A stretch of 64,000 bases of DNA from Aurantibacter sp. (GCF_039941195.1 NZ_JBDVFA010000098.1:99775-163774); one strand, 5' to 3'; shown: positions 3,103 through 20,788, counted from the first letter of the stretch. Translations and numbers: made by a program. The notes: generated from the sequence alone by a model not told the origin.

Positions 3103-3129
3103 AACCGGCATCAATTAATGATGCCGGTT
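3103..3129. terminator. Bidirectional intrinsic terminator between convergent arfB and susD-like genes
   Basis: Perfect 11-bp inverted repeat AACCGGCATCA-attaa-TGATGCCGGTT. The upstream A-run gives a U tail on the minus strand. Confidence 0.8.
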
Positions 3130-3154: not shown

Positions 3155-4921
3155 CTAATAACCTTGATTCTGTGTTAAGAATCCATCGATACCAGACGCC
3201 CCGTCAACTGCACTTTGTGGAATTGGGAACAATCTATGGTTCACATCAGAATCCGTTTTTTCTGTCCAACTATCCTCGTACTTTCCAAAACGAATTTGAT
3301 CGGTTCTTCTAAAACCCTCCCAATACAATTCAAAGCCTCTTTCTCTAAATAAGATATCTAAATCCACTGTTGAAAGTGCCCCTGGTGTTTGATCAGGTCT
3401 GGCCGTTCTTGATATTCTAACCATATTTACATCAGTTAAGGCACTAGCATTGTCACCTTTTCTTAGTTTGGCTTCTGCACGCATCAGATATATTTCAGCC
3501 AAGCGCATCATTACTAAATCAACGCTACTATAACCATTTCCATTAGGAGATGTGCGACTATACTGGTATTTTGAAAAGCGATACCCAGCATGGTGCAAAG
3601 ACCCTACATTGGTAAAATCAACTTGAAAGGTGTGATCAACATATCCGGTATCTCTGTCAGGTCCGTTGCCTTTGGTTTGTTGTAGCGGGTAGATTCGTAT
3701 TGATCCATCATCACATTTTTCAAGATCACCATCACCTCTACGTGGCCCCCATTGAATACCGCGTAGAATACCACGATCCATTTCAAATTCTTCTGCTACC
3801 ACACAATAGTAACTGTTTTCTGTTTCCGTCGCCAACAAAGGTTCCCGATTTTCCAAGTCTGAAAGTTGTACTTCTGGAACCAGAGTATTTCTTTGATAGA
3901 AACGTGCATCAGCTTCTGCAGGGTCTACATCATCATAAGCATCTACCCAGCTTAGATAAAAGTCGGGTGATACAGCAGGGCCATCGGTACCATCTGCAGT
4001 ATTGTCTGGATAAAATTCCGGTCTAGCAATCATTGCTCCTGCAATGGACCAATATGCCCACCGACTATGTTCTCTATTAAGAACCCCTCTTTGGTCTAAG
4101 GCAAAAATAAGTTCAGCATTTGTGTTGTTATCATCATTAAAAAGTTCAAAATATTCTGGAGATAGGTCATAACTGCCCGAATTTATTATTTGATCGGTAT
4201 AAGCTATAACCTTATCCATATCCTCATCCATAAAATTGGGGGTACCATAAGGGTCTCTATATATTGCAGCATTAAGGTATAACCTTGCTAAAAAACCTTT
4301 TACGGCATCTTGGGTAATACGTCCAGGACCTTTGTCATTATTAATTAGATCAACGACAGATAACAATTCACTTTCAATATAAGCAATTGCCTCATCCGTT
4401 CTAAGTACTTCTGAAAGCGCATCTGACGATTCCTTCTTAAAGACCACACCCCAACTATCAAGCATCAACATGTTTAAATAAGCCCTAAGTGCCTTCATTT
4501 CATACAATGCCCCCGAAGCTTCCACATTACCTTCTTCAGAAAGCGGAGTCAGTACTTCAATAGCTGAAAGGGTTCTTGAAATATTAATAGCCACTTGGTT
4601 CCATCCAGAACTAATCAAATCATTACTGGGCGTAAAATTGTGTTGATGTGCAGCTATGTACTTGCCTCCATCAAACCAGTCTGTTCCTCCTCTATAAGGA
4701 AGTATGGCCTCATCCGAGGAAACCTCTTGAAGACCAAAGTAATTAGTATGCCTCCAAGTCCATGATAGATAACCGTAGGCAGGGGCAATGGCTCCGTTTA
4801 TGGCATCTGCTTCTGCACCAAATTCAGTTTCATCAATTCGCTCTTCTATTAAATCGGTACAGCTTAGACCCAATAGCCCGAACAGTACCATATAAACTCC
4901 TATTTTAATTCTATTTTTCAT
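3155..4921 (-). CDS. SusD/RagB family outer-membrane lipoprotein
   Basis: Lipobox LGLSC; C-terminal RLAEIYLMRAEA, ERGFELYWEGFRRTDQIRFG and LFPIP motifs; directly downstream of a SusC. Confidence 0.93.
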   Translation of the reverse strand: MKNRIKIGVYMVLFGLLGLSCTDLIEERIDETEFGAEADAINGAIAPAYGYLSWTWRHTNYFGLQEVSSDEAILPYRGGTDWFDGGKYIAAHQHNFTPSNDLISSGWNQVAINISRTLSAIEVLTPLSEEGNVEASGALYEMKALRAYLNMLMLDSWGVVFKKESSDALSEVLRTDEAIAYIESELLSVVDLINNDKGPGRITQDAVKGFLARLYLNAAIYRDPYGTPNFMDEDMDKVIAYTDQIINSGSYDLSPEYFELFNDDNNTNAELIFALDQRGVLNREHSRWAYWSIAGAMIARPEFYPDNTADGTDGPAVSPDFYLSWVDAYDDVDPAEADARFYQRNTLVPEVQLSDLENREPLLATETENSYYCVVAEEFEMDRGILRGIQWGPRRGDGDLEKCDDGSIRIYPLQQTKGNGPDRDTGYVDHTFQVDFTNVGSLHHAGYRFSKYQYSRTSPNGNGYSSVDLVMMRLAEIYLMRAEAKLRKGDNASALTDVNMVRISRTARPDQTPGALSTVDLDILFRERGFELYWEGFRRTDQIRFGKYEDSWTEKTDSDVNHRLFPIPQSAVDGASGIDGFLTQNQGY

Positions 4922-4939
4922 CTTTTAAACAATTATAAG

Positions 4940-7930
4940 TTAGAATGATACATTTAGGCCAAACATGAATGTTCTGGCAGTGGGATACCTGTACCTATCA
5001 ATTCCAAAGGTTTGTATTTGGTCTATTTGACTCCCCGTATTTACTTCAGGATCGTAACCTGAATAATCGGTAATGGTGAAAAGATTCTGTCCTGTAATGT
5101 TAAAACGTATATTGTTAACCCATTCATCAAGGCCAATTATAGACGGATCAAGTGAATAACCCAAACTTGCATTGTTAAGTCTTAGAAAACTACCATCTTC
5201 TAAATAACGTGTAGATACATCATTAGAGTTAGTAGTGCTTTCGTTAGGATATGCAACAGCAAAATCTGTAGTATTTAAGTTATTAACCAATTGTCCTTTG
5301 TTAAATTGAGACATAGCTGTATGGTTAAATATTTTGTTGCCTGATACTCCATTAAAATTCAAACCTAAATCCAATTTTTTATAATTGAAATTCATATAGA
5401 AAGCATAAAGCACATTTGGAAGCGCGCTACCTGGTACAATACGGTCATTATCTAAGGACACCCCGTCAGCTACAACATCACTAAATTGGTTCAAGCCATC
5501 TTCGCCTATTCCAATAAAATCTTTCATGTAAAAGGCACCAATAGCCTCATTGTTGATGTAACCATTAATAGTAGCACCTGTTTGTCCGGCACCTTGTGCA
5601 GCCCCCGAGGTAATTACTGAATATATAGACCCTTCTACTACGTTATCTATAAAAGAAACATTACCACCTAGATTATAGGTAAAATCTTCACCAATATTAC
5701 CCCTGTAATCCAACGCAACTTCATAACCCTTATTCTTCACCTCCATATCTGGAAAATTGGTCCAGTACTTTTCTGTGGGGTTAATCGGATCCGGAGTTGT
5801 AGCAAATAAAATTACATCATTAGTGACTTTGTTGAAATAATCTAGTGTTCCTGTTAGACTGCCATTAAAAAAGGCAAAATCTAGTCCTACGTTGGCCTGT
5901 GTTACCACTTCCCACTTTAGGTCCGGATTAGCCGTTCGAACAGCAATGGTGCCATAAGGGTAATCATCTAAAGAAGATTCTGTACCGTCCAAAGGATAGG
6001 TGTCGTTATCACTTTTAGAATCATTATAACTGGCATAACTAGCTTTACTAGCAATCCCGTTCTGGTTTCCAGTTTGCCCCCAAGAGGCACGTAATTTAAG
6101 GTTGCTAATTAAGTCACTATCAGCCAAAAAATCTTCTTTGTAAATGTTCCATCCCAAAGCAACAGATGGAAAATAACCGTATTTATTATTGGAACCAAAT
6201 CTAGAAGAACCATCAGCACGTAAGGTTCCTGTTACCAAATATTTGTCCGCATAAGAATAGTTTAACCTTCCAAAATAAGACTGTAGTTCATCTGTAGTGG
6301 CAGTAGATGCTATTGTTGTAGCCGTAACATCTGTACTGGATTGGTCTTGGTAACGAGGTTCTATTCCGTTATTTGCAAAACCGCCTTGAAAATCAATATC
6401 CTTTCTTTCAAATTTTGTTTCTTGGTACGAATGCCCAGCTAAAAGAGTAATGCTATGCTTATCGAAATCCAATTTATAATTTAGCGTATTTTCAATTAAG
6501 TAGTTACTATTCTCTGTAGAAATGGTATTTAAAGTGCCCATGAACAGCCCTTCACCTAAGGTATAGGGCATATTTTGAATATCTCGATTAGTCATTGAAT
6601 AATCCACTCCCAGATTCACCTTATAGGTTAACCCTTTTACAATTTCTACGGAAGGAGTAATATTTGCTAAAATACGATTGCTACTAGCTTCGTCTAAGTA
6701 AATCTCATTTCGTTGTAACGGGTTTAGGATTAATCCACTAGCTCCCTCCAATACAGCAATATTACCATTGCTATCATACGCCGAAGAAGTAGGATTCAAT
6801 TGGAGCATACTCACAATTGTTGATCCAATATCGGGTCTTTCATTTATAGTTTTTGAAGCAGTCAAATTAAAGTCAACATCCAACTTCCCATCAAAGGCTT
6901 TTTGGTTCAACTTAACACGACCAGAATATCTTTTCAGGTCACTATTATAGAAAATACCTTGTTGGTCTGATACACCTCCAGAAAGAAAATAAGAAAACTT
7001 TTCACTGACACCACCACTCATGGACAAATTAACATTCTTGGTAATTCCGGTACGGGTAAGCGTATCTTGCCAATCTGTGTTGCCACCTTGATCGTCTAAG
7101 GTTCCTCCTGCTGCAGGTACCTGTTGTCTAAACTCATCGGCGCTAAATACATCCATCTTTTTAGCGATGGAAGACATAGCTGTAGAGACAGACAGTTCCA
7201 TTTCTGCCTTACCAGCCTTTCCTTTTTTAGTGGTAATCATAATTACCCCGTTTGCTGCTCGAGCACCATAAATGGCGGTAGCCGATGCATCCTTTAACAC
7301 GTCCATCGATGCGATATCTTGAGGGTTAATAAAATTCAAAGGACTTGTCCCCATACCAATATCATTACTACTGATAACAAAACCGTCAATCACATAAAGT
7401 GGTGCCGTACCTGATCTAAGGCTCCCTACCCCTCTAATAATAACGTTCTGTGATGCTCCTGGCTCCCCACTCACATTGGTAATATTTACTCCAGAAACTT
7501 TTCCTTGTAGTAATTGCCCTGGGTTGGTAACTACCCCTTGATTAAAATCTTCGCTCTTTACCGATGCAATAGATCCTGTAACATCTGATTTTTTCTGAGT
7601 TCCATAACCTATAACCACCACATCTTCTAACTGTGTTGCATCTTCTTTAAGTTGTACAATTACTGAGTTTTGCCCATTAAGTGGTACATCCATTGTAGTA
7701 TAACCTATATAAGAAAGTTCTAAAACGGCATTTAGCTCGGCAACATCTATTGTAAAATTTCCATCAAAATCTGTTGTCGTTCCATTGGAGGTTCCCTTTT
7801 CTATAACACTCGCACCAGGTAGTGGAGAACCAAATTCGTCGGTAACGTTACCGTTCACAGTTTGTTGAGCCCACGCATTTGAAGCGCAACAAAACAAACT
7901 AATAATCATTAATAATTTGAGTTTTTTCAT
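4940..7930 (-). CDS. SusC/RagA family TonB-dependent transporter
   Basis: Carboxypeptidase-like N-domain (LPGASVIEKGTSNGTTTDFDGNF), plug motif DVLKDASATAIYGARAANGVIMITTKKG, LRADGSSRFG, C-terminal YPTARTFMFGLNVSF. Confidence 0.96.
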   Translation of the reverse strand: MKKLKLLMIISLFCCASNAWAQQTVNGNVTDEFGSPLPGASVIEKGTSNGTTTDFDGNFTIDVAELNAVLELSYIGYTTMDVPLNGQNSVIVQLKEDATQLEDVVVIGYGTQKKSDVTGSIASVKSEDFNQGVVTNPGQLLQGKVSGVNITNVSGEPGASQNVIIRGVGSLRSGTAPLYVIDGFVISSNDIGMGTSPLNFINPQDIASMDVLKDASATAIYGARAANGVIMITTKKGKAGKAEMELSVSTAMSSIAKKMDVFSADEFRQQVPAAGGTLDDQGGNTDWQDTLTRTGITKNVNLSMSGGVSEKFSYFLSGGVSDQQGIFYNSDLKRYSGRVKLNQKAFDGKLDVDFNLTASKTINERPDIGSTIVSMLQLNPTSSAYDSNGNIAVLEGASGLILNPLQRNEIYLDEASSNRILANITPSVEIVKGLTYKVNLGVDYSMTNRDIQNMPYTLGEGLFMGTLNTISTENSNYLIENTLNYKLDFDKHSITLLAGHSYQETKFERKDIDFQGGFANNGIEPRYQDQSSTDVTATTIASTATTDELQSYFGRLNYSYADKYLVTGTLRADGSSRFGSNNKYGYFPSVALGWNIYKEDFLADSDLISNLKLRASWGQTGNQNGIASKASYASYNDSKSDNDTYPLDGTESSLDDYPYGTIAVRTANPDLKWEVVTQANVGLDFAFFNGSLTGTLDYFNKVTNDVILFATTPDPINPTEKYWTNFPDMEVKNKGYEVALDYRGNIGEDFTYNLGGNVSFIDNVVEGSIYSVITSGAAQGAGQTGATINGYINNEAIGAFYMKDFIGIGEDGLNQFSDVVADGVSLDNDRIVPGSALPNVLYAFYMNFNYKKLDLGLNFNGVSGNKIFNHTAMSQFNKGQLVNNLNTTDFAVAYPNESTTNSNDVSTRYLEDGSFLRLNNASLGYSLDPSIIGLDEWVNNIRFNITGQNLFTITDYSGYDPEVNTGSQIDQIQTFGIDRYRYPTARTFMFGLNVSF

Positions 7931-8040
7931 TTAGTTTAGATTAGTTAATTAAGTTAAAATTTTGAGCACTACATCGTTTGAAATAGCACCTATGAATTTA
8001 CAAGTTGTTTTTTATTAAAACAAAAGCATTTTTGAAGCCG

Positions 8041-8048
8041 CAAAAATA
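8041..8048 (-). promoter_or_regulatory. Possible Bacteroidota sigma-ABfr -7 element upstream of susC
   Basis: Minus strand TATTTTTG matches TAnnTTTG, about 110 nt upstream of the susC start. No well-spaced -33 TTG seen. Confidence 0.3.
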
Positions 8049-8187
8049 ATAGGGAATAATGGCGCGTCTATTACCCAAATCTTACGATTGGATTAATAAA
8101 TATTTACCAAATTTCTACAATGTTAACTAAATGTTATATTCAATACCTTGTATAAACTAGTATGATATTTTTAGTTCAGATTGGTTG

Positions 8188-9948
8188 TTAAGGTTGTATT
8201 TCTAACACCTGCAATATTTTTAAAAAGACCTCATTATTCTCGTAAACCCCTTGAAATTCAGTAGATTTGGGGCCATACGCAAAAATAGGCACCATTACAC
8301 CTGTATGGTCATGAGTGCTAAAAGCAGATTCAATTTCATGATTTTTTATATTTCCCTGAGGAATTGTAAGTCCACCTGTTTCGTGGTCAGCAGTAATAAT
8401 CACTAAAGTTTTTGGGTTTTGATCCGCAAATTTCAACGCTTCTGCAACGGCTTTATCAAATTGAATACTTTCATTAATAACTCCGCTAATATCATTTTCA
8501 TGACCGTATGAATCAATTTTAGCACCTTCAACCATTAAAAAAAATGGCTTTCCCTTTTTGTTCAAATAGTGCATTGCATTCTTTGCCGCTATTGCAAGTT
8601 CTGCGTTATCTTTCATTAGATAACCCACCTTTTCTTTTTTACTATTTCCTAAACTTTTTAATGAAGTAAGCATCTCAAAAGACGTTACTTTATTATTTAT
8701 ATTTTCCTTCCACAATCCATTACTAATAAAAAGCGACAATTTACTTTTTACAAGATCAGCTGCAATCTCTTTAGACATATCACGATCTAGCTGATGTGCA
8801 TAAAAAGAAGAAGGGGTAGCGCCAACTACTTCGTCAGTAGTAACAACCCCTGAAACAAATTTTTTACGAGAAAGAAATTCTGTTAAATTCTCGATAGGAT
8901 TACCACTAGCATCAACTCCAATTGCTCTATTTGGCACTTTCTCACCCGTTGCCAAAGCCGTACCTGCAGCAGCAGAATCTGTAGTAAAATCATCTGAAGA
9001 CTGTGTTTTTAAGAATCCAATACTCTTTAATTGTGTAAGCGATAATTGACCATTGTTAGCTAATGCAGTTGCAGATATTTGTGTAATTCCGTTACCATCA
9101 CCAATTAATAAAATTACACTTTCAACTTCATCATCTTTTTGATCTGAAACAAAACTGGGTGAATACACCTCTGAAAATTGCGCATTTTGAACAACACTTT
9201 TATCCAAATTTTGAACATAAGAAACACAGTTAAAAGGCATATCAGTATTAATAAAATCAACTCCTAAATTTACCATAACCTTCCATGAGGTTTTAGAATC
9301 TGGCGTTGCCCAAAAGCGAAATGGTTTTCCAAGAGCATGAGCCTTAGCTACAGCGTTAGAAACTTTGGTAAAATCTTCGTCTGTCAACCTACCTTTACCG
9401 TTCCAAAAGGAGAATTTTTTAAAGCTTAAACTTACAAGTGCAATCTTATTTAATATGGATGCATCGCCAATTGCCTCTAAACTTTGATAATCAAAATAGA
9501 TATAATCTGGATAATTTATATAATCTTCAACTTTTGGTCGATTACCTGAAATTACAATAGATAGATTTTTATTTTCTATCAAAGTAGGATACATTTTTAA
9601 AGCAGAAATAATGGCCTCTAAAGTTGCATAAGCCTCTGATTTAATATCCAAAAGCAATTGAAAAGGCTGATCACCAATATTTGTGGTTTTTAGGCCCTTT
9701 GCCAAAGGGTTTAAATAAAGCTCTTCAAGGCTTTTACTTTCACTAATTTCATTTTTTTCATGTGCAACAAGTAATTTATTAGCTGCCAAAAAAACATCAG
9801 CTTCAACAGACGTAGCTCCAGCAGAAACAGCCTTCCAAAAAGGAATGCTCTGAAAATAATCGTTATGTGAATGAACCCTAAAATCACTTGGTTGCTGTGC
9901 AAACAAAATAGTTGTAGTAAAAAATAAAAGGAATATAATTTTTTTCAT
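8188..9948 (-). CDS. Secreted fusion: N-terminal PLC/GDPD-like TIM-barrel phosphodiesterase + C-terminal alkaline phosphatase
   Basis: Signal peptide (ILFA/QQ). N-domain HSHNDY...SVEADV...LLVAHE...LLLDIK, FRFWATPD, FINTD. C-domain ILLIGDGNG, TDSAAAGTA (Ser nucleophile), FFLMVEGAKIDSYGH, TADHETGG, HTG. Confidence 0.88.
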   Translation of the reverse strand: MKKIIFLLFFTTTILFAQQPSDFRVHSHNDYFQSIPFWKAVSAGATSVEADVFLAANKLLVAHEKNEISESKSLEELYLNPLAKGLKTTNIGDQPFQLLLDIKSEAYATLEAIISALKMYPTLIENKNLSIVISGNRPKVEDYINYPDYIYFDYQSLEAIGDASILNKIALVSLSFKKFSFWNGKGRLTDEDFTKVSNAVAKAHALGKPFRFWATPDSKTSWKVMVNLGVDFINTDMPFNCVSYVQNLDKSVVQNAQFSEVYSPSFVSDQKDDEVESVILLIGDGNGITQISATALANNGQLSLTQLKSIGFLKTQSSDDFTTDSAAAGTALATGEKVPNRAIGVDASGNPIENLTEFLSRKKFVSGVVTTDEVVGATPSSFYAHQLDRDMSKEIAADLVKSKLSLFISNGLWKENINNKVTSFEMLTSLKSLGNSKKEKVGYLMKDNAELAIAAKNAMHYLNKKGKPFFLMVEGAKIDSYGHENDISGVINESIQFDKAVAEALKFADQNPKTLVIITADHETGGLTIPQGNIKNHEIESAFSTHDHTGVMVPIFAYGPKSTEFQGVYENNEVFLKILQVLEIQP

Positions 9949-9976
9949 GGTAGTAATTTATTCATTTTATAAAACA

Positions 9977-10003
9977 AAACCGGCGTTAGCCAAACACCGG
10001 TTT
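9977..10003 (-). terminator. Intrinsic terminator-like hairpin between the AlkP-family gene and the PDE-AP fusion
   Basis: Minus strand AAACCGGTGTT-tggct-AACGCCGGTTT (one G-U pair) followed by TGTTTT. Confidence 0.6.
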
Positions 10004-10123
10004 AATAAAATAACTCAAACTATTCTTAATCAAATAATATTTTACAAAATTCGCTCTAAATAGAGTTTCAATTGTTAAATAAAGGTGACCATTCTATTAA
10101 GATTAAATTAGGTACACAAACAA

Positions 10124-11206
10124 TTATAATTTAATTGGTGCTGCTTCCATCAATTGCTTGTCAATTTTTAAATTCATTGCTTTAAGAATAGTGGGGGCAA
10201 TCATATTAGTATATAATTGATTATTCCTTTTAATTTCTCCTTTGGGCGAAACTCCTTTACCAAAGAAGGCCATCCATACTTCACCTGAATTTTTTACCTC
10301 ATCTCCGTGACTACGCCATGTATCTAGAGGTTGAGTACCTCTTCCGTGATCCGTAGTTATTATGAATAGGGTATTATCTTTATAAAATGGGTCTTGTTGT
10401 GTGAAATTCCAAATTTCATTAATCATATCATCGGTGGCATTTGCAGATTTCAGATATGCATCATACTCGCCATCATGGGCGAAATCATCAGTTTCACCGT
10501 ATGCGATATATACCAATTCAGGATGATTTTTCTTCATAGTTTCTAGTGCATAATAATGCGTAAAACCATCGAACCGAACAGTACCCCACGGACTAGGAAC
10601 TTTCGGCTGAAGTTCGTTTAAAAGTTTTTCGCGATCGGTGAGGTTATTTCCTTTCGCATTTTCAAAACCAGCATTAACCGGAACACCTGATCGTTCTTCA
10701 TTTATTATATATGGAAAAACATCCCAGCTTCCAAAAGCGGCTACCTTGCCTTTATACCTTACATCAGAATTAGCAATTTCTAATACAGTTTTACTCGGAT
10801 TATTAATTTTAGCATTACTATCAATTCTTTCATCATCAGCTTTGCCTGTTAAAATTTCATTATAGCCAGGGTATGAAAACCACATTTTATTGGTTAAATT
10901 CACTTTACTACCAAAATTTCTATTCCCATGAATTTGACCTAATGCTGTAACTTTTGACCAAAAAAAAGGAAGTAGCGTTTCTCTTCTTTCGGCAGCTGTT
11001 TCTTTCCAGAATTGCTTTTTTAAACCGGTTGTATCATGTACATACTGTTTATTTGCAACTAAAAGCGGATCGGCCCCGGTAAAGAGTTCTTGCCAACGCA
11101 ATCCGTCCAAAGTGATTAATACTACTTTTGTGTTTTTTGATTGTTGCGCTTTTAGTGAAAAAGTAGTTACCATCAAAAAGACAGTAAACATTATTTTAGT
11201 TTTCAT
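10124..11206 (-). CDS. Secreted alkaline-phosphatase-superfamily enzyme (NPP/phosphoglyceromutase-like)
   Basis: Signal peptide (SLKA/QQ); LITLDGLR metal Asp; FSYPGYNEILTG; GETDDFAH; ITTDHGRG; final H. Its ATG overlaps the upstream stop (ATGA, 11203-11206). Confidence 0.8.
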   Translation of the reverse strand: MKTKIMFTVFLMVTTFSLKAQQSKNTKVVLITLDGLRWQELFTGADPLLVANKQYVHDTTGLKKQFWKETAAERRETLLPFFWSKVTALGQIHGNRNFGSKVNLTNKMWFSYPGYNEILTGKADDERIDSNAKINNPSKTVLEIANSDVRYKGKVAAFGSWDVFPYIINEERSGVPVNAGFENAKGNNLTDREKLLNELQPKVPSPWGTVRFDGFTHYYALETMKKNHPELVYIAYGETDDFAHDGEYDAYLKSANATDDMINEIWNFTQQDPFYKDNTLFIITTDHGRGTQPLDTWRSHGDEVKNSGEVWMAFFGKGVSPKGEIKRNNQLYTNMIAPTILKAMNLKIDKQLMEAAPIKL

Positions 11207-12792
11207 TTCTCTTTTGTTTTAAAAGTTTTAACCGCCGACCAATCGCTCCAATTCAAGTTTTGATCTCTGTAGCGAACGCGCCAATAATAAGTTGTATTTG
11301 GTTTTAAGCGTTGTATTTCTTCATCTGTAAGGTCATCATCTTTCTGCCGATTCTCTTTATAATACCAGTTTTCATACTGTTTCCATCTATCAAATGTGGG
11401 CTTTTCAAAAGATTCTGTAGTAGACACTTGCCAATTTGATGCTGCATGAAAAGCACCAGAATAATCACTTTTAAATTCACCTGCTTTAAAAATGACATTG
11501 GTAATTTCAATATCAGATTTCACTGGAGAAATCGCCAGAGGAACATTTGGTTTTCGTTCATTTCTAAAAATAGTTATGCTGTCTCTTAACTCGTTTTCTC
11601 GATGCTCAATTGTATTTCCCCTACTAATTCGTTTTATGGTAAACTTTGGGTTTTTTCGATCTCCATCAACAGATACCATTACAAATCCGTATTCATCTTG
11701 TGTTACGGTAAATTCATCATAATCTTTACCCTCAAATTCACCCCAATTATCAATTGCACCACCTGCTGACGCTACATTAATCCAAAGGTGTTTATGGTCT
11801 TTAGATTGACCTCTAGAATACCCATGTGTGTGTCCAAAAAAGTGAATACTTGGCTTACCGGTTTTAGTTGAAAATTGTTCTAATTCTTTCACAATTTTTC
11901 CGGTGAAATCTTCCTCACCAGGAATCCAAAGCTCTGATTTATATGGATGATGTAATTGCGCAAAAACAAAATCAATTTTATCATCTTTCTCAGTTTCTAA
12001 AAGCACCTTTTTCAACCATTCTAATTGTTCATATAAATCGCGATAACCATCATTAGAATCTAGACCGATAACACGTGTATTTCCATAGTCTTTATACCAC
12101 CAATGTTCTGCATAAGCTGGGGTACCATTTTCAGGCAAATTGAAATATTTGAAGTAATACACAGAATTACGTTCATGATTACCTGGCACAGGATATACTG
12201 GCACTTCAGAAAATAATTTTTCAGCAGGATTAAAAAAATGGTCTTTCCATTGAAAAAATTTCGAACCTCGTTCCACCAAATCTCCAGGTATAAGAACCAT
12301 TGCAAGATTATCTGGCAAGTTTCCTCCAAACTCTTTTTCAAGATAACCTATAACCCCTTCATTTACAACCTCGTTAAATTTATTAGGCTGATTATGATCG
12401 TATTGCATATCACTCATGGCTACCAACTTAAAATCTTCACCATCATCAGAAAAAGGTGTCGTTTTAAATTGAAAAATATCAGATTTCATTTTTCCTGTTC
12501 GCACACGGTAATAATATTCTGTAAAACGTTCTAAGCCTTCAATTTTTACAGTGTGTAATTGCACCGCATCAAAATTAACAGCTTCCGAAGTTCCTGACGC
12601 TTTTTTACCCAATTTCGGACTTGTTCCCCATTCTAATATACTTTCATCACCAATTGACGTTTGCCACATTACTACGGCTGAATTGGGTTCAACATCTTGT
12701 AGATACGGTTTAATCTCTAATTCTTGCGCCCTTGATTGAGCGCTTATAACTAAGAATAATAAGCATACAATTGCCTTTAATTTGGTATTCAT
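11203..12792 (-). CDS. Purple acid phosphatase / calcineurin-like metallophosphoesterase with N-terminal Ig-like and C-terminal FN3-like domain
   Basis: Signal peptide; KPYLQ N-domain; MSDMQ, PGDLV, PGNHE, QLHHP, GHTHGY; C-terminal YYWRVRYRD...WSDWS. Confidence 0.88.
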   Translation of the reverse strand: MNTKLKAIVCLLFLVISAQSRAQELEIKPYLQDVEPNSAVVMWQTSIGDESILEWGTSPKLGKKASGTSEAVNFDAVQLHTVKIEGLERFTEYYYRVRTGKMKSDIFQFKTTPFSDDGEDFKLVAMSDMQYDHNQPNKFNEVVNEGVIGYLEKEFGGNLPDNLAMVLIPGDLVERGSKFFQWKDHFFNPAEKLFSEVPVYPVPGNHERNSVYYFKYFNLPENGTPAYAEHWWYKDYGNTRVIGLDSNDGYRDLYEQLEWLKKVLLETEKDDKIDFVFAQLHHPYKSELWIPGEEDFTGKIVKELEQFSTKTGKPSIHFFGHTHGYSRGQSKDHKHLWINVASAGGAIDNWGEFEGKDYDEFTVTQDEYGFVMVSVDGDRKNPKFTIKRISRGNTIEHRENELRDSITIFRNERKPNVPLAISPVKSDIEITNVIFKAGEFKSDYSGAFHAASNWQVSTTESFEKPTFDRWKQYENWYYKENRQKDDDLTDEEIQRLKPNTTYYWRVRYRDQNLNWSDWSAVKTFKTKEK

Positions 12793-12823
12793 GTTCTTGA
12801 TTTAAATATTTTATGAATAATTT

Positions 12824-14188
12824 TTATGCCCTTAAATGATACGATTTAGGTTGCACAAAAGCCCGAATTCCTTGTGATGATAAAGTAGCTCCCAGACCTG
12901 AATTTTTTCTACCCGACCATGGCACATTTGGACTAACACGATCACAGCAATTCCAATACACAGTACCTGTATTCATTTGTTGAAGAACCTGCATAGCACG
13001 GTTTTCGTTGGCAGTGAAAATTGCTGACGTCAAACCATATTCTGTGTCTTGCATTAAGGCAATAGCTTCAGCATCAGTAGTTACTTTTTGTATACCGATA
13101 ATTGGTCCAAAAGATTCATCTTTCATCACCTTCATAGCATGAGTACAGTCGACCAAAACAGTGGGTTGAAAAAAGTAACCCTCACCATCAATAGCTTTTC
13201 CTCCAGTTTTTAGAACAGCACCTTTTTCTAAGGCATCATTCACTTGATCTTTCAATACTGTAAGTTGTGGTTCTCGCGTTAATGGGCCAATAAAAGTATT
13301 GGTATCATTAGGATCACCTATAGTATACGATGCAACCTCTTCTACAAAGCATTCAACAAATTCATCATAAATTGATTCAGAAACATAAATACGTTCAACG
13401 GCACAACAACTTTGACCATTATTATAAAAAGCGCCTTCTGCGGCATTTATAGCAGCAACTTTTACATTGGGCACATCATCTGCAATAAAGAGCGGGTCTT
13501 TTCCGCCTAATTCCAACTGCAATGGAACTAATTTTGCTGCTACAGATTTTGCTATTTTTTGACCAGTTGCATGAGATCCCGTAAAAAAGTAACCATCAAA
13601 TTCTGATTCTAAAATTTGTTGTCCTAATTTTCCATCACCAATAGCACATTTAAATACATTATTTGGTACACCAGCCTCATATAAATATTTTTCAAATTGC
13701 TTACCAGTAAGACTCGCAAATTCTGAAGGTTTATACAAAACAGCATTACCTGCAACCAAAGCATATAGAAAAACATTGTAACCTACATTGTATGGGAAAT
13801 TCCAAGCTGAAATATTTGCAATAACACCTAATGGCTCATAAACTATTTTCTCATGCGTAGCACCACTAGCCACCAATACCTCATCGGCTAACCATTTTTC
13901 AGCATTATCAATTAAATGGTCTATTCTATTCTGAGCGCCGACAATTTCATTTAACGATTGCTGTAATGGTTTCCCTGTTTCACTGGTAAGTAAAGCAGCT
14001 AATTCATCTTTATTTTGTTGAATAAGACTTCCGAACTTTACAATACAATCCAAACGCTCACCAACAGACCGTTGAGACCATTCTTTCTGTCCGCTTTGAA
14101 GTATTTTCAATAATTCATTCACTTCTTGCGGATTGTTAGCTTCCAATTCGGCTATAATTTTATTTGTTGCCGGGTTCTTAATTTTCAT
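12824..14188 (-). CDS. NAD(P)-dependent aldehyde dehydrogenase
   Basis: AWNFP, KPSE, FTGS, LELGGKDP (catalytic Glu), GQSCCA (catalytic Cys), ESFGP. Confidence 0.95.
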   Translation of the reverse strand: MKIKNPATNKIIAELEANNPQEVNELLKILQSGQKEWSQRSVGERLDCIVKFGSLIQQNKDELAALLTSETGKPLQQSLNEIVGAQNRIDHLIDNAEKWLADEVLVASGATHEKIVYEPLGVIANISAWNFPYNVGYNVFLYALVAGNAVLYKPSEFASLTGKQFEKYLYEAGVPNNVFKCAIGDGKLGQQILESEFDGYFFTGSHATGQKIAKSVAAKLVPLQLELGGKDPLFIADDVPNVKVAAINAAEGAFYNNGQSCCAVERIYVSESIYDEFVECFVEEVASYTIGDPNDTNTFIGPLTREPQLTVLKDQVNDALEKGAVLKTGGKAIDGEGYFFQPTVLVDCTHAMKVMKDESFGPIIGIQKVTTDAEAIALMQDTEYGLTSAIFTANENRAMQVLQQMNTGTVYWNCCDRVSPNVPWSGRKNSGLGATLSSQGIRAFVQPKSYHLRA

Positions 14189-14202
14189 TTCAAAATTTGA
14201 AT

Positions 14203-14940
14203 TTATTTTACTTGTTTTAAAAAGGCCTTATATAAAATATTATGGTCAATGAGTTCTCCACTTAAGGTGTTCGAAAATTCCGGGTGCCATTGTACGCCCA
14301 TCACCTTTCCGTTTTGTTCTTTGTTGTATCCAAAAGCCTCAATTAACCCATCATCACTATGTGCATAAACCGTTAGGTCTTCTCCTAAATCTTTTACTGC
14401 CTGATGATGCACTGTATTTACATGTGGATCTTTAATACCTTTGTATAAAGTATCAAAAAAGGTGTTTTCAACAATTTTTAAAGGATGCTTAATTGTATCA
14501 TACAATTCAGCTGATCTATGTTTATTTACATGAGGTAATTGTGTATCTAGATCTTGATATAGTGTACCACCAAAATAGGCATTCATCAATTGAAATCCAC
14601 GACAAATTCCTAAAACCGGCAATGAATTTTTAATTGCAAAATCAAGAATTTTCAATTCATATTGATCTCTATGCGCATCACCTTTCCATCTGCCAATTGG
14701 CTTTTCACCATAAGTTTCTGGTGCCAAATCACTACCGCCTTGTAATACAATACCGCTAACTTCAGATAAAATTGCTTCCAAATAAGAGTCATCCACATCA
14801 GGTATTAAAACTGGAAGAATACCTTTTTGTGTCACATACCGAGCCATGTCATTTTCAATGTAACTCAGCGATTTCATACCAAACACTGTCCGGTCTTTAT
14901 CTGGGTACATAAAGCAAGAAGAAATACCAATTTTTATCAT
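14203..14940 (-). CDS. Gamma-glutamyl-amide hydrolase, peptidase C26 / PuuD-like (class I glutamine amidotransferase fold)
   Basis: LQGGSD, RDQYE, LGICRGFQ (nucleophilic Cys), VNTVHHQAV, GVQWHPE (His-Glu). Confidence 0.9.
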   Translation of the reverse strand: MIKIGISSCFMYPDKDRTVFGMKSLSYIENDMARYVTQKGILPVLIPDVDDSYLEAILSEVSGIVLQGGSDLAPETYGEKPIGRWKGDAHRDQYELKILDFAIKNSLPVLGICRGFQLMNAYFGGTLYQDLDTQLPHVNKHRSAELYDTIKHPLKIVENTFFDTLYKGIKDPHVNTVHHQAVKDLGEDLTVYAHSDDGLIEAFGYNKEQNGKVMGVQWHPEFSNTLSGELIDHNILYKAFLKQVK

Positions 14941-14949
14941 TTCTTATTG

Positions 14950-16092
14950 TTAAAGTGCTGTTTGATATAACTTTTTAAAATCTTCTAATGCCACCGGTTT
15001 GGGGTTATTTGGATGACAAAAATCTGCCAGCGCCAAAACCGACAATTCATCAATATGCTCTGCTTTAACACCTATTGCTGATAACTTTGTGGGAAGTCCT
15101 AATTTTTCATTCAACTCAAATAAGTGAGAAACCACCTTACTGCCCTCATTAGACCCAAGCCCTAAAGCAACTGCCATTTTATCAAATCGGTCTTCAAAAC
15201 CTTCATAATTAAAGTCCATTCCATAGGGTAAATTAATAGCATTTGCCAAACCGTGATGGGTGTCAAATACACTAGATAATGGATGCGCCAAACTATGTAC
15301 TACTCCCAAACCTTTTTGGAAAGCAACAGCACCCATTAGTGATGCTAATAGCATTTTTGAACGCGATTCTATATCCGGATTTTTCGTAGCGGTTTCTAAA
15401 GACTGTGCAATCAATGTAATTCCTTCAAGAGCAATTCCATCGCACATTGGGTGAAAACCTTTTGCAACATACGCTTCCATATTATGGGTTAAGGCATCCA
15501 TACCTGTAGCAGCAGTAATAAAACCCGGAAGTTCCATTGTCAACATAGGATCTGCAAAGACAATTTTTGCCATCAACTTTGGACTAAACAAAATTCGTTT
15601 CTTTTTGCTTTCATCTTCCGAGATTATAGCACTTCTACCCACCTCACTTCCAGTACCTGAAGTTGTTGGCACGGTTATAAAATGAGGTACATCTTCAGTA
15701 ACATATTTATCACCACCTATTAGATCATCATAATCAAAAAGATCACGTTTATGATTAACTCGTAGAACGATGGCTCTAGCAACGTCTAAAGCAACGCCAC
15801 CACCAATACCTACAATACAATCGCACTTGGCATCATGATAAGCATCACCACCTTTAAGAACATCCGATTTAAGTGGATTTTTGTGCATTTCAGTGAATAC
15901 TTCTACACTCAATCCAGCTTTTTCTATGTCCTTCTTTATTTTTTTAAAAAAGGACAATTCTGCTACAGTACCATCAGTTACAAAAAGTGGCTTTTTTAGG
16001 TTATGGCTTTTTAAGTAATCAGCTAGCTCATTAATAACACCACTTCCAAAGCGAATTGGAGTTGGAAAATTATAAGTATATGTAGTATTCAA
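14950..16092 (-). CDS. Iron-containing alcohol dehydrogenase (TTG start)
   Basis: GIGGGVALD, PTTSGTGSE, GMDALTHNME, HSLAH, HHGLAN (Fe ligands). Confidence 0.92.
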   Translation of the reverse strand: MNTTYTYNFPTPIRFGSGVINELADYLKSHNLKKPLFVTDGTVAELSFFKKIKKDIEKAGLSVEVFTEMHKNPLKSDVLKGGDAYHDAKCDCIVGIGGGVALDVARAIVLRVNHKRDLFDYDDLIGGDKYVTEDVPHFITVPTTSGTGSEVGRSAIISEDESKKKRILFSPKLMAKIVFADPMLTMELPGFITAATGMDALTHNMEAYVAKGFHPMCDGIALEGITLIAQSLETATKNPDIESRSKMLLASLMGAVAFQKGLGVVHSLAHPLSSVFDTHHGLANAINLPYGMDFNYEGFEDRFDKMAVALGLGSNEGSKVVSHLFELNEKLGLPTKLSAIGVKAEHIDELSVLALADFCHPNNPKPVALEDFKKLYQTAL

Positions 16093-16103
16093 TTTTTATC
16101 TAT

Positions 16104-17459
16104 TTAAATTATTTCGAAATATCTTTTGGTTTCCCAATCAGTCACAGCAGCAGCAAATTGCTTCCATTCCCATTCTCGGGTATATGTAAAATGATCTACA
16201 AACGCTTCACCAAAAATCTCTTTCGCAATTGTTGAGTTTTTCATTTTTATCGCTGCTTCTAATAAGTTTGAAGGCAGCTTTCCATTTTTAAAGTCTAGGT
16301 ATCCATTACCATTTGTTGGTTCAACAGTTAATTCAAGCTTATGCTTAATTCCGTATAACCCACTAGCCAAACAAGCAGCCATTGCCAAATAAGAATTCGT
16401 ATCAGAACCTACTACTCTATGTTCAATTCTTGTTGATTTTGCAGAACCTACTAAAGGTCTTAGCGCTGTGGTTCTATTATCATGACCCCACGTAATTGTA
16501 GTTGGTGCCCAAGCTCCTTCCACTAAGCGTTTATAACTATTTATTGTTGGGGCAAACATGGGTAATATTTCTGGAAGACAAAGTAATTGTCCTGCAAGAA
16601 AACTCCGCATTATAGTACTCATTCCATCTTTTGCCTTTTCATCAAAAAACAAATTGGTTTTCATATCTACATCCCAAAGGCTTTGATGAACATGACCACT
16701 ACAACCGGGTAAATCACTACTAGGTTTGGCCATAAAACTTGGCACTATACCATGCTTGTGACCGATTTCTTTGGCTGCGGTTTTAAACAAAACTGCACGA
16801 TCAGCAGCTTCAAGAATTCCACTATATTGAATAGCCGCCTCTGTAACTCCAGGGCCAGTTTCAGTATGAAGACCTTCTAATGGAACATTAAATTCACCTA
16901 ACAAATCGAAAAGGTCCTGAAAAAATTCGGAGTTTTCTGATAATTTCAACATAGAATACCCAAACATTCCAGAAGTAAGTGGTTGTAGGTTACTAAAATT
17001 CTTTTCGTTTACAGAAGTCGACGTTTCTTTATAATTAAACCATTCAAATTCTTGAGAAAACATGGCAGCAAAACCCATTTGTTCACTTTCAGCAATTATC
17101 TTTTTTAGCAAACTTCTTGGGCACACCGAAAAATTTTCTTCTCCATTCGAAAAATCAGCTAAAAACAGCGGTGTATTCTTTTCCCAAGGAATTGTTCTAA
17201 AAGTATTTAAATCGATATACGCATTTACATCTCCATAACCCGTATGCCATCCGGTAACTTTAGCATTTTCATATGAAACGTCATCCATATCCCATCCAAA
17301 GACTACCGAACAAAATCCGAATCCGTCTTTTAATGCTGCAATAAACTTGTCTTTATGCATGTATTTACCGCGTAAAACGCCATCAATATCTACAATAGCC
17401 AACTTTATTTTATGATGACCGCTTTCTTGAATTCTTAAGATAATTTCATTTTTGTCCAT
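16104..17459 (-). CDS. Glutamine-synthetase-like gamma-glutamyl-amine ligase (PuuA/GlnA4-like)
   Basis: DIDGVLRGK, EFEWF, HTETGPG, KP...GCSGHVHQS, NSYKRL..WAP, NRTTALR, RIEHR. The flap reads GAWAP where true GS has GYEAP. Confidence 0.88.
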   Translation of the reverse strand: MDKNEIILRIQESGHHKIKLAIVDIDGVLRGKYMHKDKFIAALKDGFGFCSVVFGWDMDDVSYENAKVTGWHTGYGDVNAYIDLNTFRTIPWEKNTPLFLADFSNGEENFSVCPRSLLKKIIAESEQMGFAAMFSQEFEWFNYKETSTSVNEKNFSNLQPLTSGMFGYSMLKLSENSEFFQDLFDLLGEFNVPLEGLHTETGPGVTEAAIQYSGILEAADRAVLFKTAAKEIGHKHGIVPSFMAKPSSDLPGCSGHVHQSLWDVDMKTNLFFDEKAKDGMSTIMRSFLAGQLLCLPEILPMFAPTINSYKRLVEGAWAPTTITWGHDNRTTALRPLVGSAKSTRIEHRVVGSDTNSYLAMAACLASGLYGIKHKLELTVEPTNGNGYLDFKNGKLPSNLLEAAIKMKNSTIAKEIFGEAFVDHFTYTREWEWKQFAAAVTDWETKRYFEII

Positions 17460-17468
17460 GGGCTACCT

Positions 17469-18791
17469 TTATTTCATTTTATGATTGAGAAAAATTAAGA
17501 AATACAGATATGAAACCCCAATAATACCAATGAAAATTAATGCGATATTAAAATTATAATAGGTCATTGATACAAAAGCAATTATAGCAATTATCAGTGC
17601 AGTACTAGGAAACAGGGGAAACAGAGGCACTTTAAATGGACGTTCTAATTCAGGTTCTTTTTTTCGAAGTGCAAAAAATGAAAGCATTGATACGATGTAG
17701 AGTCCTAAAGCACCAAAACAAGCAATGGTAATAATCTCACCTGTTTTACCTGTAAACAAAGCCACAATGCCAATAAGCATATTCACAATTAATGAGTTTG
17801 CTGGCGTTCTATACTTTTTATGAATTGCCCCTAGCACTTTAGGAGCATAACCAACTCTACCGAATTCAAAAGTTGATCGGCCACCAGCAAGAATAATTCC
17901 ATGAAAAGAAGCTACCAAACCTAATAGGCCAATACCTACTAAAAGTTTATACAAAATATGATCACTAGACACCACGTAAGAAATAGCTAAAGGAAGTGGT
18001 GAATCTGAGGCAATTGCACTACCTGCAGGATACACTACAGCCTCCCAACCTGCCACGCCAACTGCTGAAGCAAAAGTGAGCAAACATAAAATAACCAAGG
18101 TTAAAATGGCAGAACCAAAACCTATTAAAATACTTCGCTGTGGATTAATAGCTTCTTCTGCTACATTTGCTACGCCTTCTATCGCTAAGAAAAACCAGAT
18201 AGCGAAAGGAATGGCGGCAAAAATACCAGCGTAACCATTTGGCAATGGATTAGATTGAACATTTGCCCATTCAAATTCAGGCAATGTAACCCCAGAAAAT
18301 ATTAAAAGCTCGATAATAGCTAATACGGTAATTACCAATTCAAAAGTAGCTGCCAGTTTTACCCCTAGAATATTAATTAAGGTAAAAATTACATACGCAC
18401 CAATAGCAAAAATCATTAAATCTACAGAAGGATAAAGTAGGTTTAAATACGCGCCAATTGCTGCAGCTATGGCCGGCGGCGCAAAAACGAATTCTATATT
18501 TTGAGTAATACCCGCTAAAAATCCTAAATGCTTACCGAGCCCCCTATTTGCATATTCAAATGCTCCACCAGCTTTAGGAATGGCACAAGCCATTTCGGTA
18601 TAGCTAAAGGTAAACGTAACGTACATTAGTATGATGAAAATGGTAGCAATCGCAAGTCCGTATGTACCTCCTTCGGCAAGACCTAAATTCCATCCGAAGT
18701 ACATTCCCGATATTACATATCCAACACCTAACCCCCATAACATTAAAGGACTTAGTACTTTTTTCAATTTGGGTTGGTCGGTTTGGCTCAT
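17469..18791 (-). CDS. eat: Ethanolamine permease (APC family)
   Basis: LWGLGVGYVISGMYFGW, IEFVFAPPAIAAAIGAYL and AIPFAIWFFLAIEG match motifs I recall for Eat-type permeases; about 12 hydrophobic segments. Confidence 0.82.
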   Translation of the reverse strand: MSQTDQPKLKKVLSPLMLWGLGVGYVISGMYFGWNLGLAEGGTYGLAIATIFIILMYVTFTFSYTEMACAIPKAGGAFEYANRGLGKHLGFLAGITQNIEFVFAPPAIAAAIGAYLNLLYPSVDLMIFAIGAYVIFTLINILGVKLAATFELVITVLAIIELLIFSGVTLPEFEWANVQSNPLPNGYAGIFAAIPFAIWFFLAIEGVANVAEEAINPQRSILIGFGSAILTLVILCLLTFASAVGVAGWEAVVYPAGSAIASDSPLPLAISYVVSSDHILYKLLVGIGLLGLVASFHGIILAGGRSTFEFGRVGYAPKVLGAIHKKYRTPANSLIVNMLIGIVALFTGKTGEIITIACFGALGLYIVSMLSFFALRKKEPELERPFKVPLFPLFPSTALIIAIIAFVSMTYYNFNIALIFIGIIGVSYLYFLIFLNHKMK

Positions 18792-18978
18792 TTCGGTTGG
18801 TTTATCAATATCGCAAAATTCATGACAGTTGAATAATACCTGAAATTAAAATTTTTTAGAATATAAAACCTAGTTTTTCAATTATTTAGTTAATTATGTA
18901 CATTTAATTACGATATACAGGAATATACTTCTAAAAACATCATCTCGAAGATTGTTATTTAGGCTAAAAATACTACTC

Positions 18979-19449
18979 ATGAAACTGGACGAAAAAGACC
19001 TAAAAATTTTAGATTTATTACAAGAGGATGCTAATATTACTAACAAGCAAATAGCGCTAGCAACTAATTTAACTTTAACACCTGTTTATGAACGTATTAA
19101 AAAGCTTACATCTTTAGCGTTACTTAAGAAAAAGGTTTATTTATTGAATCGTAAAAAATTAGGGCTGAATGTAATGGTATTGGTTTCAGTCAAAATTGAA
19201 AAACACTCCGAAGAAGGAGCACTATCATTTATGAATGAAATAAAAAAAATTCCTGAAGTAATCGAATGTTTGCATGTTACCGGGGCTTTTGACTTTCAAT
19301 TAAAGGTTATTACAAAAGATATTGATACATATCACGAATTTAATTTTAAAAAATTAGCTACAATTAAAAATATTAGTCAAATGGAAAGCTATTTTGTGAT
19401 GAAAGAGGTTATAAATTCAACTCGATTGCCTTTGTCTATTATTAAATAA
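18979..19449 (+). CDS. Lrp/AsnC family transcriptional regulator, divergent from eat
   Basis: LDEKDLKILDLLQEDANITNKQIA HTH and ECLHVTGAFDFQLKV RAM domain. ATG at 18979 preferred over the TTG at 18952. Confidence 0.9.
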   Translation: MKLDEKDLKILDLLQEDANITNKQIALATNLTLTPVYERIKKLTSLALLKKKVYLLNRKKLGLNVMVLVSVKIEKHSEEGALSFMNEIKKIPEVIECLHVTGAFDFQLKVITKDIDTYHEFNFKKLATIKNISQMESYFVMKEVINSTRLPLSIIK

Positions 19450-19900: not shown

Positions 19901-19918
19901 TAAGAATTTAGAGAAATC

Positions 19919-20554: not shown

Positions 20555-20788
20555 ATAATGTTACATCAAAGTGCGGTTCTAAAACACTTCTCAGATTTCT
20601 ATAATTCTATCAGTCTATTTCTTGATTAACTAATTAATCAACAATAAATACACCAATGCACTTATAGTATTGCTCAAATAAAGATTTGGAAAAGAGGCTC
20701 CGAAGAGCATTTACTGTGGGGCGTACAATATAAGAAGAATAGGGGCTCATAAAAGAAAAAAATGGTTTTTTCGATGAAAACAACCACT

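Follow-up and report, generated by a model that had tools for sequence, protein, structure and literature searches.

In the 64,000-nt stretch of Aurantibacter sp. DNA analysed here (NZ_JBDVFA010000098.1:99775-163774, which as a whole we call the window), positions 3155-19449 hold ten consecutive minus-strand open reading frames (ORFs) and a divergent Lrp/AsnC-family regulator. On balance, and with moderate confidence, we read them as a composite organophosphorus and amino-alcohol scavenging island of three units, in which exported esterases supply the ethanolamine permease Eat and a gamma-glutamyl pathway. In the direction of transcription the genes are eat, a glutamine synthetase (GS)-like ligase, an Fe-dependent alcohol dehydrogenase (FeADH), a Peptidase C26/class-I glutamine amidotransferase (GATase) hydrolase, an aldehyde dehydrogenase (ALDH), an exported PAP/PhoD-like metallophosphoesterase (here PAP), an exported alkaline-phosphatase-superfamily protein (here AlkPfam), an exported phosphodiesterase-phosphatase fusion, susC and susD. 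Our ORF listing, Pfam/NCBIfam searches and folding calculations reproduced every detail of the run, gene identities, coordinates, gaps and hairpins given in a preliminary description of this DNA.

First, the esterase genes are joined closely to the amine-catabolic genes. The intergenic distances from eat to susD are 9, 11, 9, 14 and 31 nt, a 4-nt overlap, and then 175, 257 and 18 nt. PAP starts 31 nt past ALDH at a junction that lacks a hairpin (folding z = +0.26), and the AlkPfam start overlaps the PAP stop in an ATGA, providing translational coupling, so that the catabolic genes and two phosphoesterases form one tight run free of internal terminators, as had been proposed. The run is closed by a minus-strand terminator-like hairpin at 9977-10003 (11-bp stem and T-run; -19.6 kcal/mol, z = -3.75), and a second minus-strand hairpin at 3103-3129 (z = -6.2) closes susCD. 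Upstream of susC, at a distance of 118 nt, there is a perfect Bacteroidota -7 promoter box (TATTTTTG, 8041-8048, minus strand); no other perfect TAnnTTTG falls within the intergenic gaps of the locus, the sole other intergenic match (22046) lying outside it, upstream of a DAO gene. Together the terminators, the spacing and the -7 box make three transcription units likely (eat to AlkPfam, the fusion gene, and susCD), and the earlier suggestion that the fusion and susCD are transcribed separately is plausible. Predicted compartments agree with such a model: SPI-type signal peptides were found on PAP, AlkPfam and the fusion, and a lipobox (LSC) on SusD, while no export signal was found in the four cytoplasmic pathway enzymes.

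Secondly, the genes at the head of the run have the composition of the gamma-glutamyl route of ethanolamine catabolism, with a dedicated transporter, a ligase that is not a true GS, an alcohol dehydrogenase, an aldehyde dehydrogenase and an amide hydrolase in a single operon. Eat (17469-18791, minus strand) scores 445.7 bits against the TIGR00908 equivalog model (cut-off 381.75). The GS-like ligase (16104-17459, minus strand; Gln-synt_C, 305 bits) falls far under the cut-offs for GlnA, GS-III and gamma-glutamylputrescine synthetase (GGputSyn), and its position beside eat agrees with the published pathway (PMC6529630, PMC10132767), making it a putative ethanolamine gamma-glutamylase (gamma-glutamylethanolamide synthetase). 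The FeADH (14950-16092, minus strand; Fe-ADH and ADH_Fe_C), the C26 hydrolase (14203-14940, minus strand; Peptidase_C26, 191.7 bits; top NCBIfam match PuuD-like, under its cut-off) and the ALDH (12824-14188, minus strand; Aldedh, 424.9 bits) are the corresponding candidates for gamma-glutamylethanolamide dehydrogenase, gamma-glutamylglycine hydrolase and gamma-glutamylacetaldehyde dehydrogenase. No match to EutB (PF06751) was found in the 99.5%-complete genome with a search that was positive for the E. coli control, and a Eut system is not recognised. We found no ethanolamine route in the genome other than the gamma-glutamyl one, which is independent of vitamin B12, in line with the preliminary description. 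In one other genome the GS-like orthologue (G092:C1:10155-11504, 63% identical) has become a pseudogene interrupted by eight in-frame stops; a further, partial copy is found at another place.

The pathway was established for the GlnA4 cluster of Streptomyces coelicolor (PMC6529630), and in Phaeobacter a gamma-glutamyl operon is induced during growth on phosphatidylethanolamine, so that catabolism of ethanolamine from this lipid is physiologically known (PMC10132767). Both the GlnA4 cluster and the EtoXVW operon of C. salexigens and Phaeobacter sp. MED193 resemble the window in enzyme classes and in combining these with an ethanolamine transporter in one operon. They differ in their transporter (TRAP rather than the Eat permease) and in their hydrolase (formylglutamate-amidohydrolase type rather than C26/GATase), whereas the window also has an Lrp/AsnC regulator and, within the operon itself, two exported phosphoesterases, of which the other systems have none.

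The first of these esterases, PAP (11203-12792, minus strand; Pur_ac_phosph_N and Metallophos in Pfam, SPI signal peptide), consists of an N-terminal Fn3-like domain, a Metallophos core and a C-terminal Ig-like domain. Purple acid phosphatases bind their metals through seven ligands in five blocks, and the tyrosine of the GDxxY block gives the Fe(III) charge-transfer colour. Four of the five blocks are recognisable in the window protein (motifs D128, GDLVE, GNHE204-207, HH281-282 and GHTH320-323), but the second reads GDLVE and has no Tyr ligand, with G170, D171, L172 and V173 invariant in 27 homologues. In fold, the predicted structure (pLDDT 77) matches purple acid phytase, Bacillus subtilis PhoD and kidney-bean purple acid phosphatase. 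The label of purple acid phosphatase used in the preliminary description thus holds for the fold, which is PAP/PhoD-like, and is rejected for the enzyme class because the GDxxY tyrosine is absent.

The second esterase, AlkPfam (10124-11206, minus strand; 360 aa, SPI signal peptide), belongs to an uncharacterised family of the alkaline phosphatase superfamily. Its Pfam matches are weak, with only PF01676 passing its cut-off. It could be placed in no characterised family: PF01663 (NPP, 20.9 bits) and PF00884 (sulfatase, 21.4 bits) remain under their cut-offs, the iPGM models far under theirs, PafA membership likewise fails, and sequence comparison with the PDB returned only noise and no relative. 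The AF2 model (pLDDT 93) aligns with sulfatases, LtaS/LtaP and YejM at a TM of only 0.5-0.58 (best 0.55-0.58), the Foldseek probability being 1.0 for sulfatases, LtaS and YejM. Across 52 homologues eight residues (D34, S111, D240, D241, H244, D286, H287 and H300) do not vary, a pattern that together with the modelled fold suggests a bimetal AlkP-superfamily hydrolase with a serine nucleophile. The family has more than 8000 members, whose names are generic or conflicting ('sulfatase-like hydrolase/transferase', 'phosphoglyceromutase'). PAP, AlkPfam and the fusion gene are each present in one copy in the genome.

We propose that the first unit (18791-10124), under Lrp control, would combine the gamma-glutamyl pathway and Eat with the two periplasmic esterases. 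PAP and AlkPfam would hydrolyse 2-aminoethyl phosphate esters in the periplasm to ethanolamine and phosphate, with phosphoethanolamine, glycerophosphoethanolamine and phosphoethanolamine-bearing lipid or glycan fragments as candidate substrates. Eat would import the freed ethanolamine for use without B12, and in the cytoplasm it would be converted through gamma-glutamylethanolamide and the corresponding aldehyde to gamma-glutamylglycine, and finally to glycine and glutamate.

Thirdly, the coupling of esterases to amine catabolism recurs. Kriegella sp. EG-1 has the identical synteny, flanks included, with proteins 73-95% identical to those of the window. Beyond it, at least five further arrangements, from genomes and from metagenomes, link PAP, AlkPfam and/or SusCD with two types of gamma-glutamyl operon. 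Two loci (L119 and L117) have Lrp beside eat-GS-FeADH-C26-ALDH-SusC-SusD-u448-PAP-AlkPfam, in which PAP is 85% identical to that of the window and u448 is a conserved gene described below; a TARA locus (L120) has the same order minus u448; in L172 the operon eat-GS-FeADH-C26-ALDH-PAP (PAP 66% identical) ends at that gene; and in G071 a SusCD-AlkPfam set, an aminophosphonate module and an Lrp-eat operon are neighbours. The second type of operon is a distant gamma-glutamyl module whose permease' scores 356 bits against TIGR00908, just below the cut-off, and whose GS' shares 49% identity with that of the window. This module occurs as SusC-SusD-AlkPfam-permease'-GS'-ALDH'-FeADH'-GATase' beside an orthologous, divergent Lrp (G106/L004), as PAP-permease'-GS'-ALDH'-FeADH' (L177/L195), and as SusC-SusD-permease'-GS'-ALDH'-FeADH'-GATase' behind an ECF sigma/anti-sigma pair (G041/L007). 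The last of these operons (L007, G041:C39, 6135-19912) opens with this pair (ECF sigma factor and FecR anti-sigma factor) and with a SusC lengthened at its N terminus, to 1173 aa, and contains no phosphoesterase; judged by its gene content it appears to amount to a trans-envelope-signalling SusCD system dedicated to an amine nutrient.

Among 151 genera AlkPfam occurs in 21, the GS-like ligase in 10 and both in 8 (Fisher p = 1.4e-6), and in three of the eight genera with both the two genes lie within 12 kb, for which the chance probability is ~8e-6. In the PAP tree the proteins of the window, Kriegella, L117 and L120 form one clade with seven solitary PAPs (SH-aLRT 95), while that of L172 is nested in a clade of PAPs linked to the phosphonate gene PbfA (SH-aLRT 98), and these two separately supported positions imply that eat and PAP were fused independently at least twice.

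Units 2 and 3, the fusion gene and susCD, resemble a known type of locus. The fusion (8188-9948, minus strand; SPI signal peptide) joins a PLC/GDPD-like phosphodiesterase domain (residues ~20-250; PF13653, GDPD_2) to a PhoA-type alkaline phosphatase domain (~275-585; PF00245, Alk_phosphatase) in which the catalytic DSAAA serine and the metal ligands are intact. In the PDB it matches TAB5 alkaline phosphatase (2e-59) and, weakly, the GDPD 3no3, and its domain pair is identical to that of Fjoh_3249 of Flavobacterium johnsoniae (PMC8115612). SusC (4940-7930, minus strand; TIGR04056, 795 bits) is a PusC2-like TonB-dependent transporter, 51% identical to a SusC of Flavobacterium sp. DSR3-2 (L057) that precedes SusD and a PhoA1-type fusion. 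The PusD2-like surface lipoprotein SusD (3155-4921, minus strand; SusD_RagB, lipobox LSC) has orthologues 49-95% identical that always adjoin orthologous SusC. PusD2 of F. johnsoniae has a conserved ligand-stacking tryptophan, W297; the window SusD, to which the Flavobacterium sp. SusD is 49% identical, has an invariant W325 with flanking Asp residues that could not be mapped onto it. The full fusion is found in ~12 of the 151 genera, and the fusion-SusCD block recurs as a unit (L009, L010, L014, L067, L057 and L160-163). Many Flavobacteriaceae also encode the two parts of the fusion separately, as a GDPD-like protein of ~250-300 aa and a PhoA of ~360 aa.

Loci of this kind were described in Flavobacterium in 2021 as PUS loci, which combine SusCD with phosphoesterases, lack carbohydrate-active enzymes (CAZymes) and are induced by phosphate depletion; PUSII was defined by PhoA1 (PF00245 and PF13653; Fjoh_3249) with PusCD2 (Fjoh_3250/1), and some PusCD clusters sit with phosphonate genes (PMC8115612). 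The window has the corresponding gene content, a SusC/SusD pair beside exported phosphoesterases and adjoined by a PhoA-type fusion with PF13653, and no CAZyme domain occurs within 3155-19449, as had been noted. It is thus close to PUSII (Pus2) of F. johnsoniae, and the Flavobacterium sp. block of this build is 49-56% identical to the three window proteins. The window differs from Pus2 in lacking an ECF sigma/anti-sigma pair, in placing the fusion gene upstream of susC and behind a terminator of its own, and in adjoining the ethanolamine operon. With classical polysaccharide utilisation loci it shares outer-membrane capture, periplasmic hydrolysis and inner-membrane uptake within one locus, but it has phosphoesterases in place of glycoside hydrolases and lyases and yields an amino alcohol as its end product; by its lack of CAZymes it does not belong among those loci. 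For the preliminary description, such a coupled architecture was not known to have been described. This is correct for the link of eat to phosphoesterases, since we found no paper connecting an eat/gamma-glutamyl operon in Bacteroidota with exported phosphoesterases, SusCD or PUS loci, but SusCD with phosphoesterases and without CAZymes is a known PUS locus. The parts are known; what has no published description is the coupling at operon level and the module exchange with phosphonate loci discussed below, and the esterases include a family that is uncharacterised.

A September 2026 preprint reports that growth on phosphatidylinositol and on glycerophosphoinositol (GroPI) depends on PusCD1 and PusCD2, although GroPI is not the preferred ligand of PusCD2 (bioRxiv 10.64898/2026.09.03.749221). 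The head groups on which F. johnsoniae Pus2 acts are those of phosphoinositol, and growth on glycerophosphoethanolamine (GroPE) does not require it. Most likely the fusion (9948-8188) and susCD (7930-3155) of the window would, as a PUSII/Pus2-type system, take phosphodiester head groups in through the outer membrane and release alcohol and phosphate. The block may feed unit 1, and its regulation would probably be separate.

The genomic surroundings of the locus bear on a different explanation, namely that the modules are adjacent without sharing a substrate. On that view independent modules (an ethanolamine operon, a Pus2 system and two phosphatases of general Pho type) would have accumulated in a variable island whose backbone site is fixed, and PAP-AlkPfam, read through from the eat promoter or transcribed from an unrecognised promoter of their own, would serve general phosphate scavenging. 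The backbone FabH-BCCP-BC-DAO-u211-u149 ... RF1-like-ABC-S9 does hold AlkPfam alone in a metagenomic contig (L118) and AlkPfam with the fusion gene in G110, implying that modules were added stepwise and that the island grew around AlkPfam. The eat module and the esterases lie apart in most genomes, and in F. johnsoniae PhoA1/PusCD2 are induced by phosphate depletion together with the PF01676 'putative APase' Fjoh_2225, a possible homologue of AlkPfam (PMC8115612). Simple adjacency nevertheless accounts poorly for at least five differently built fusions to two types of gamma-glutamyl operon, in which the partner is PAP alone, AlkPfam alone, both, or SusCD, for the independent origins in the PAP tree, or for linkage so far from chance expectation, and we regard it as rather unlikely.

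The survey of AlkPfam also identifies the usual home of the esterase pair. We mapped 80 species-level AlkPfam-centred loci by tblastn, 61 of them with full flanks. The usual context is HTH-cupin followed by SusC-SusD(PF12771)-NPP/PA14-u422-PbfA-PAP-AlkPfam-(DUF5690-TIGR03364 oxidase-PhnX-like), and loci with full flanks carry PF12771-type SusCD in 44 of 61 cases and phosphonate genes in 37. The assignments of PbfA (NF049939, 714 bits against a cut-off of 525), of the HAD protein as a PhnX-like phosphonatase and of the TIGR03364 oxidase all lie above NCBIfam cut-offs; for DUF5690 we found no paper. The locus is widely conserved in Flavobacteriaceae and Cytophagales (L010, L011, L014, L020, L024-L029 and more; e.g. 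L010:1-11083), only its SusCD-AlkPfam core being seen in Balneolales, and it looks like a system for SusCD-based utilisation of esterified 2-aminoethylphosphonate (AEP) or hydroxy-AEP. Between SusD/NPP and PbfA/PAP lies a conserved gene of ~420-450 aa (u422/u448; L010:5778-7046, L119:14584-15930), absent from the window, that matches no Pfam family and shows a faint metallo-beta-lactamase match (E = 9e-4), so that these loci may have another hydrolase in it. Some PbfA-type loci (L165:11619-14266 and L166) have an Eat-like permease, 30% identical to the window's, directly after AlkPfam, and no gamma-glutamyl enzymes.

Aminophosphonate-type PUS loci, which receive only passing mention in PMC8115612 and bioRxiv 10.64898/2026.09.03.749221, share with the window the coupled PAP-AlkPfam pair and the placing of exported esterases, co-transcribed, alongside enzymes that break down a 2-aminoethyl head group in the cytoplasm. 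In Pseudozobellia and in a Maribacter metagenome-assembled genome they are followed, as in the window, by a Pus2-like block, so that PbfA-PAP-AlkPfam-...-fusion-SusC-SusD reproduces the right half of the window with a phosphonate left half. They differ from the window in that their cytoplasmic module is C-P (PbfA/PhnX-like) and not one for ethanolamine, and in having PF12771-type SusCD and an NPP/PA14 enzyme, neither of which the window has. In most relatives the esterase pair would thus serve SusCD loci for the phosphonate analogues AEP and hydroxy-AEP, and in the lineage of the window the cytoplasmic phosphonate module would have been exchanged for the ethanolamine module, a direction of exchange that, like the substrates of the esterases, we infer.

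The same neighbourhoods could be taken to mean that the window esterases still act on phosphonate esters, as found in phosphonolipids or phosphonoglycans, and free AEP-type head groups, their place behind eat being a remnant of rearrangement. The pair is most often accompanied by PbfA, the PhnX-like hydrolase, the TIGR03364 oxidase and DUF5690, and L014 and Pseudozobellia carry the right half of the window behind PbfA. But no homologue of PbfA, DUF5690, TIGR03364 oxidase, NPP/PA14, u422 or PhnX was found in the genome of the window, so that the pair has been kept without a recognisable aminophosphonate pathway and free AEP would be a dead end; moreover the clade of the window PAP contains no PbfA-linked member. 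We consider this explanation improbable. In our view most improbable is that the substrates are phosphoethanolamine-decorated glycans or envelope polymers (invertebrate glycans, lipopolysaccharide cores, capsules) that SusCD imports as oligosaccharides and the esterases strip in the periplasm. Oligomers are typical SusCD cargo, the NPP-type enzyme of the sister loci has the carbohydrate-associated domains PA14, Fn3_assoc and CHB_HEX_C, and the C-terminal Ig-like domain of PAP is also known from glycosidases. The lack of a CAZyme in the window locus argues against such substrates, as does the GDPD/PLC-like domain of the fusion, which suits glycerophosphodiesters or inositol phosphodiesters (PMC8115612).

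Regulation was addressed through the control region between eat and Lrp. The regulator (18952-19449, plus strand; AsnC_trans_reg and HTH_24 in Pfam) is divergent from eat, and its orthologues, 78-94% identical, stand divergently beside eat or SusC in L009, L006, L002, L004 and L119. As listed the ORF begins at a TTG and encodes 165 aa, and because the orthologues are shorter (156-160 aa) translation probably begins at an internal Met, residue 10 (~18979), which would extend the control region (18792-18951, minus strand) to ~187 nt. This region contains a conserved block, AGGTTTTATATTCTAAAAAA at 18871-18852 followed by TTAATTTCAGGTATTATT, that is retained in Kriegella (L009) and in the metagenomic L119 and is the single such site within the window. 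A palindrome seen in Kriegella (TAGGTT-N4-AACCTA) was found only upstream of eat, with a match frequency no higher than chance. A CTGTCAT half-site of a Pho box upstream of eat was rejected, as it is not conserved in Kriegella, and a scan for sigma-70 promoters, uninformative for Bacteroidota, returned sites no more numerous than in shuffled sequence.

Several results weigh against our preferred reading of esterases that supply the Eat/gamma-glutamyl pathway. The conserved block AGGTTTTNTNTTCTAAAAAA occurs only upstream of eat and is absent before the fusion gene and susC; with operator sites solely before eat, there is no evidence of a single regulon spanning all three units, and for unit 1 itself we infer co-transcription of eat through AlkPfam from spacing alone. 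The usual partners of the pair are aminophosphonate genes: in 83 loci from genomes and metagenomes the upstream neighbour of PAP is PbfA in 62, SusD in 10 and ALDH in one, and phosphonate genes are present in 88 of 160 loci. Solitary AlkPfam genes make up 15 of the 61 loci with full flanks, several PAP genes are also solitary, and PAP-AlkPfam could be general phosphate-scavenging enzymes. Neither esterase has a characterised close relative, which makes their substrates guesses. The GS-like orthologue is present in 55 of 401 Bacteroidia genomes and linked to AlkPfam in only one of the 55, that of the window, while the five-gene eat module stands alone in other Bacteroidia families (e.g. L094, L106 and L107). 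The synteny comparison proposed in the preliminary description is still largely favourable to it, with the whole arrangement kept in Kriegella sp. EG-1 and the other fusions linking its parts, but the linkage does not hold for most Bacteroidia. Lastly, a pus1 pus2 double deletion of F. johnsoniae grows normally on GroPE and on glycerophosphocholine (GroPC) (bioRxiv 10.64898/2026.09.03.749221), and since Pus1 and Pus2 are not needed on GroPE, the import of this compound by the window SusCD, as first proposed, is unsupported. The broader proposal of phospholipid head-group scavenging stands in so far as the linkage of esterases to amine operons is recurrent, and is weakened by the prevalence of PbfA beside the pair.

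Beyond Lrp, positions 19451-21904 encode a DAO-type FAD oxidoreductase, a 211-aa lipoprotein and a 149-aa GreA-C-like protein, a trio that lies directly before AlkPfam in G110 and L118. The DAO shows weak similarity to aminophosphonate, sarcosine and glycine oxidases, and the oxidation of glycine after the pathway is a conceivable role. We excluded the trio from the system, since in L118 and G110 it forms part of the conserved backbone and the DAO gene carries a terminator-like hairpin of its own.

Taken more widely, though only as a tentative and somewhat doubtful generalisation, Bacteroidota may possess modular 'head-group utilisation loci', in which an esterase pair recognising 2-aminoethyl-phosph(on)ate esters is combined with interchangeable SusCD, phosphonate and amino-alcohol modules, the ethanolamine version being controlled by Lrp and not by Pho. 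If so, phosphate release would be driven by demand for nitrogen or carbon, amounting to a phosphate-insensitive remineralisation of organophosphorus, and the locus would offer a testable case of phosphatase expression under an amine regulator instead of phosphate. Kriegella sp. EG-1, a cultured relative with the identical locus, makes such tests feasible.

Phospholipid head groups are a large pool of marine organic nitrogen and phosphorus. Access of Bacteroidota to this pool is only now emerging, the first functional study of PusCD being the 2026 preprint. The present locus suggests that exported phosphoesterases can be wired directly into an ethanolamine catabolic operon, that one esterase pair may serve both phosphate and phosphonate aminoethyl head groups, and that cytoplasmic modules are swapped around these esterases, and it offers a candidate function for the thousands of unnamed alkaline-phosphatase-superfamily proteins related to AlkPfam. 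For the marine flavobacterium that carries it, the locus probably allows the capture of both nitrogen and phosphorus from the head groups of membrane lipids.

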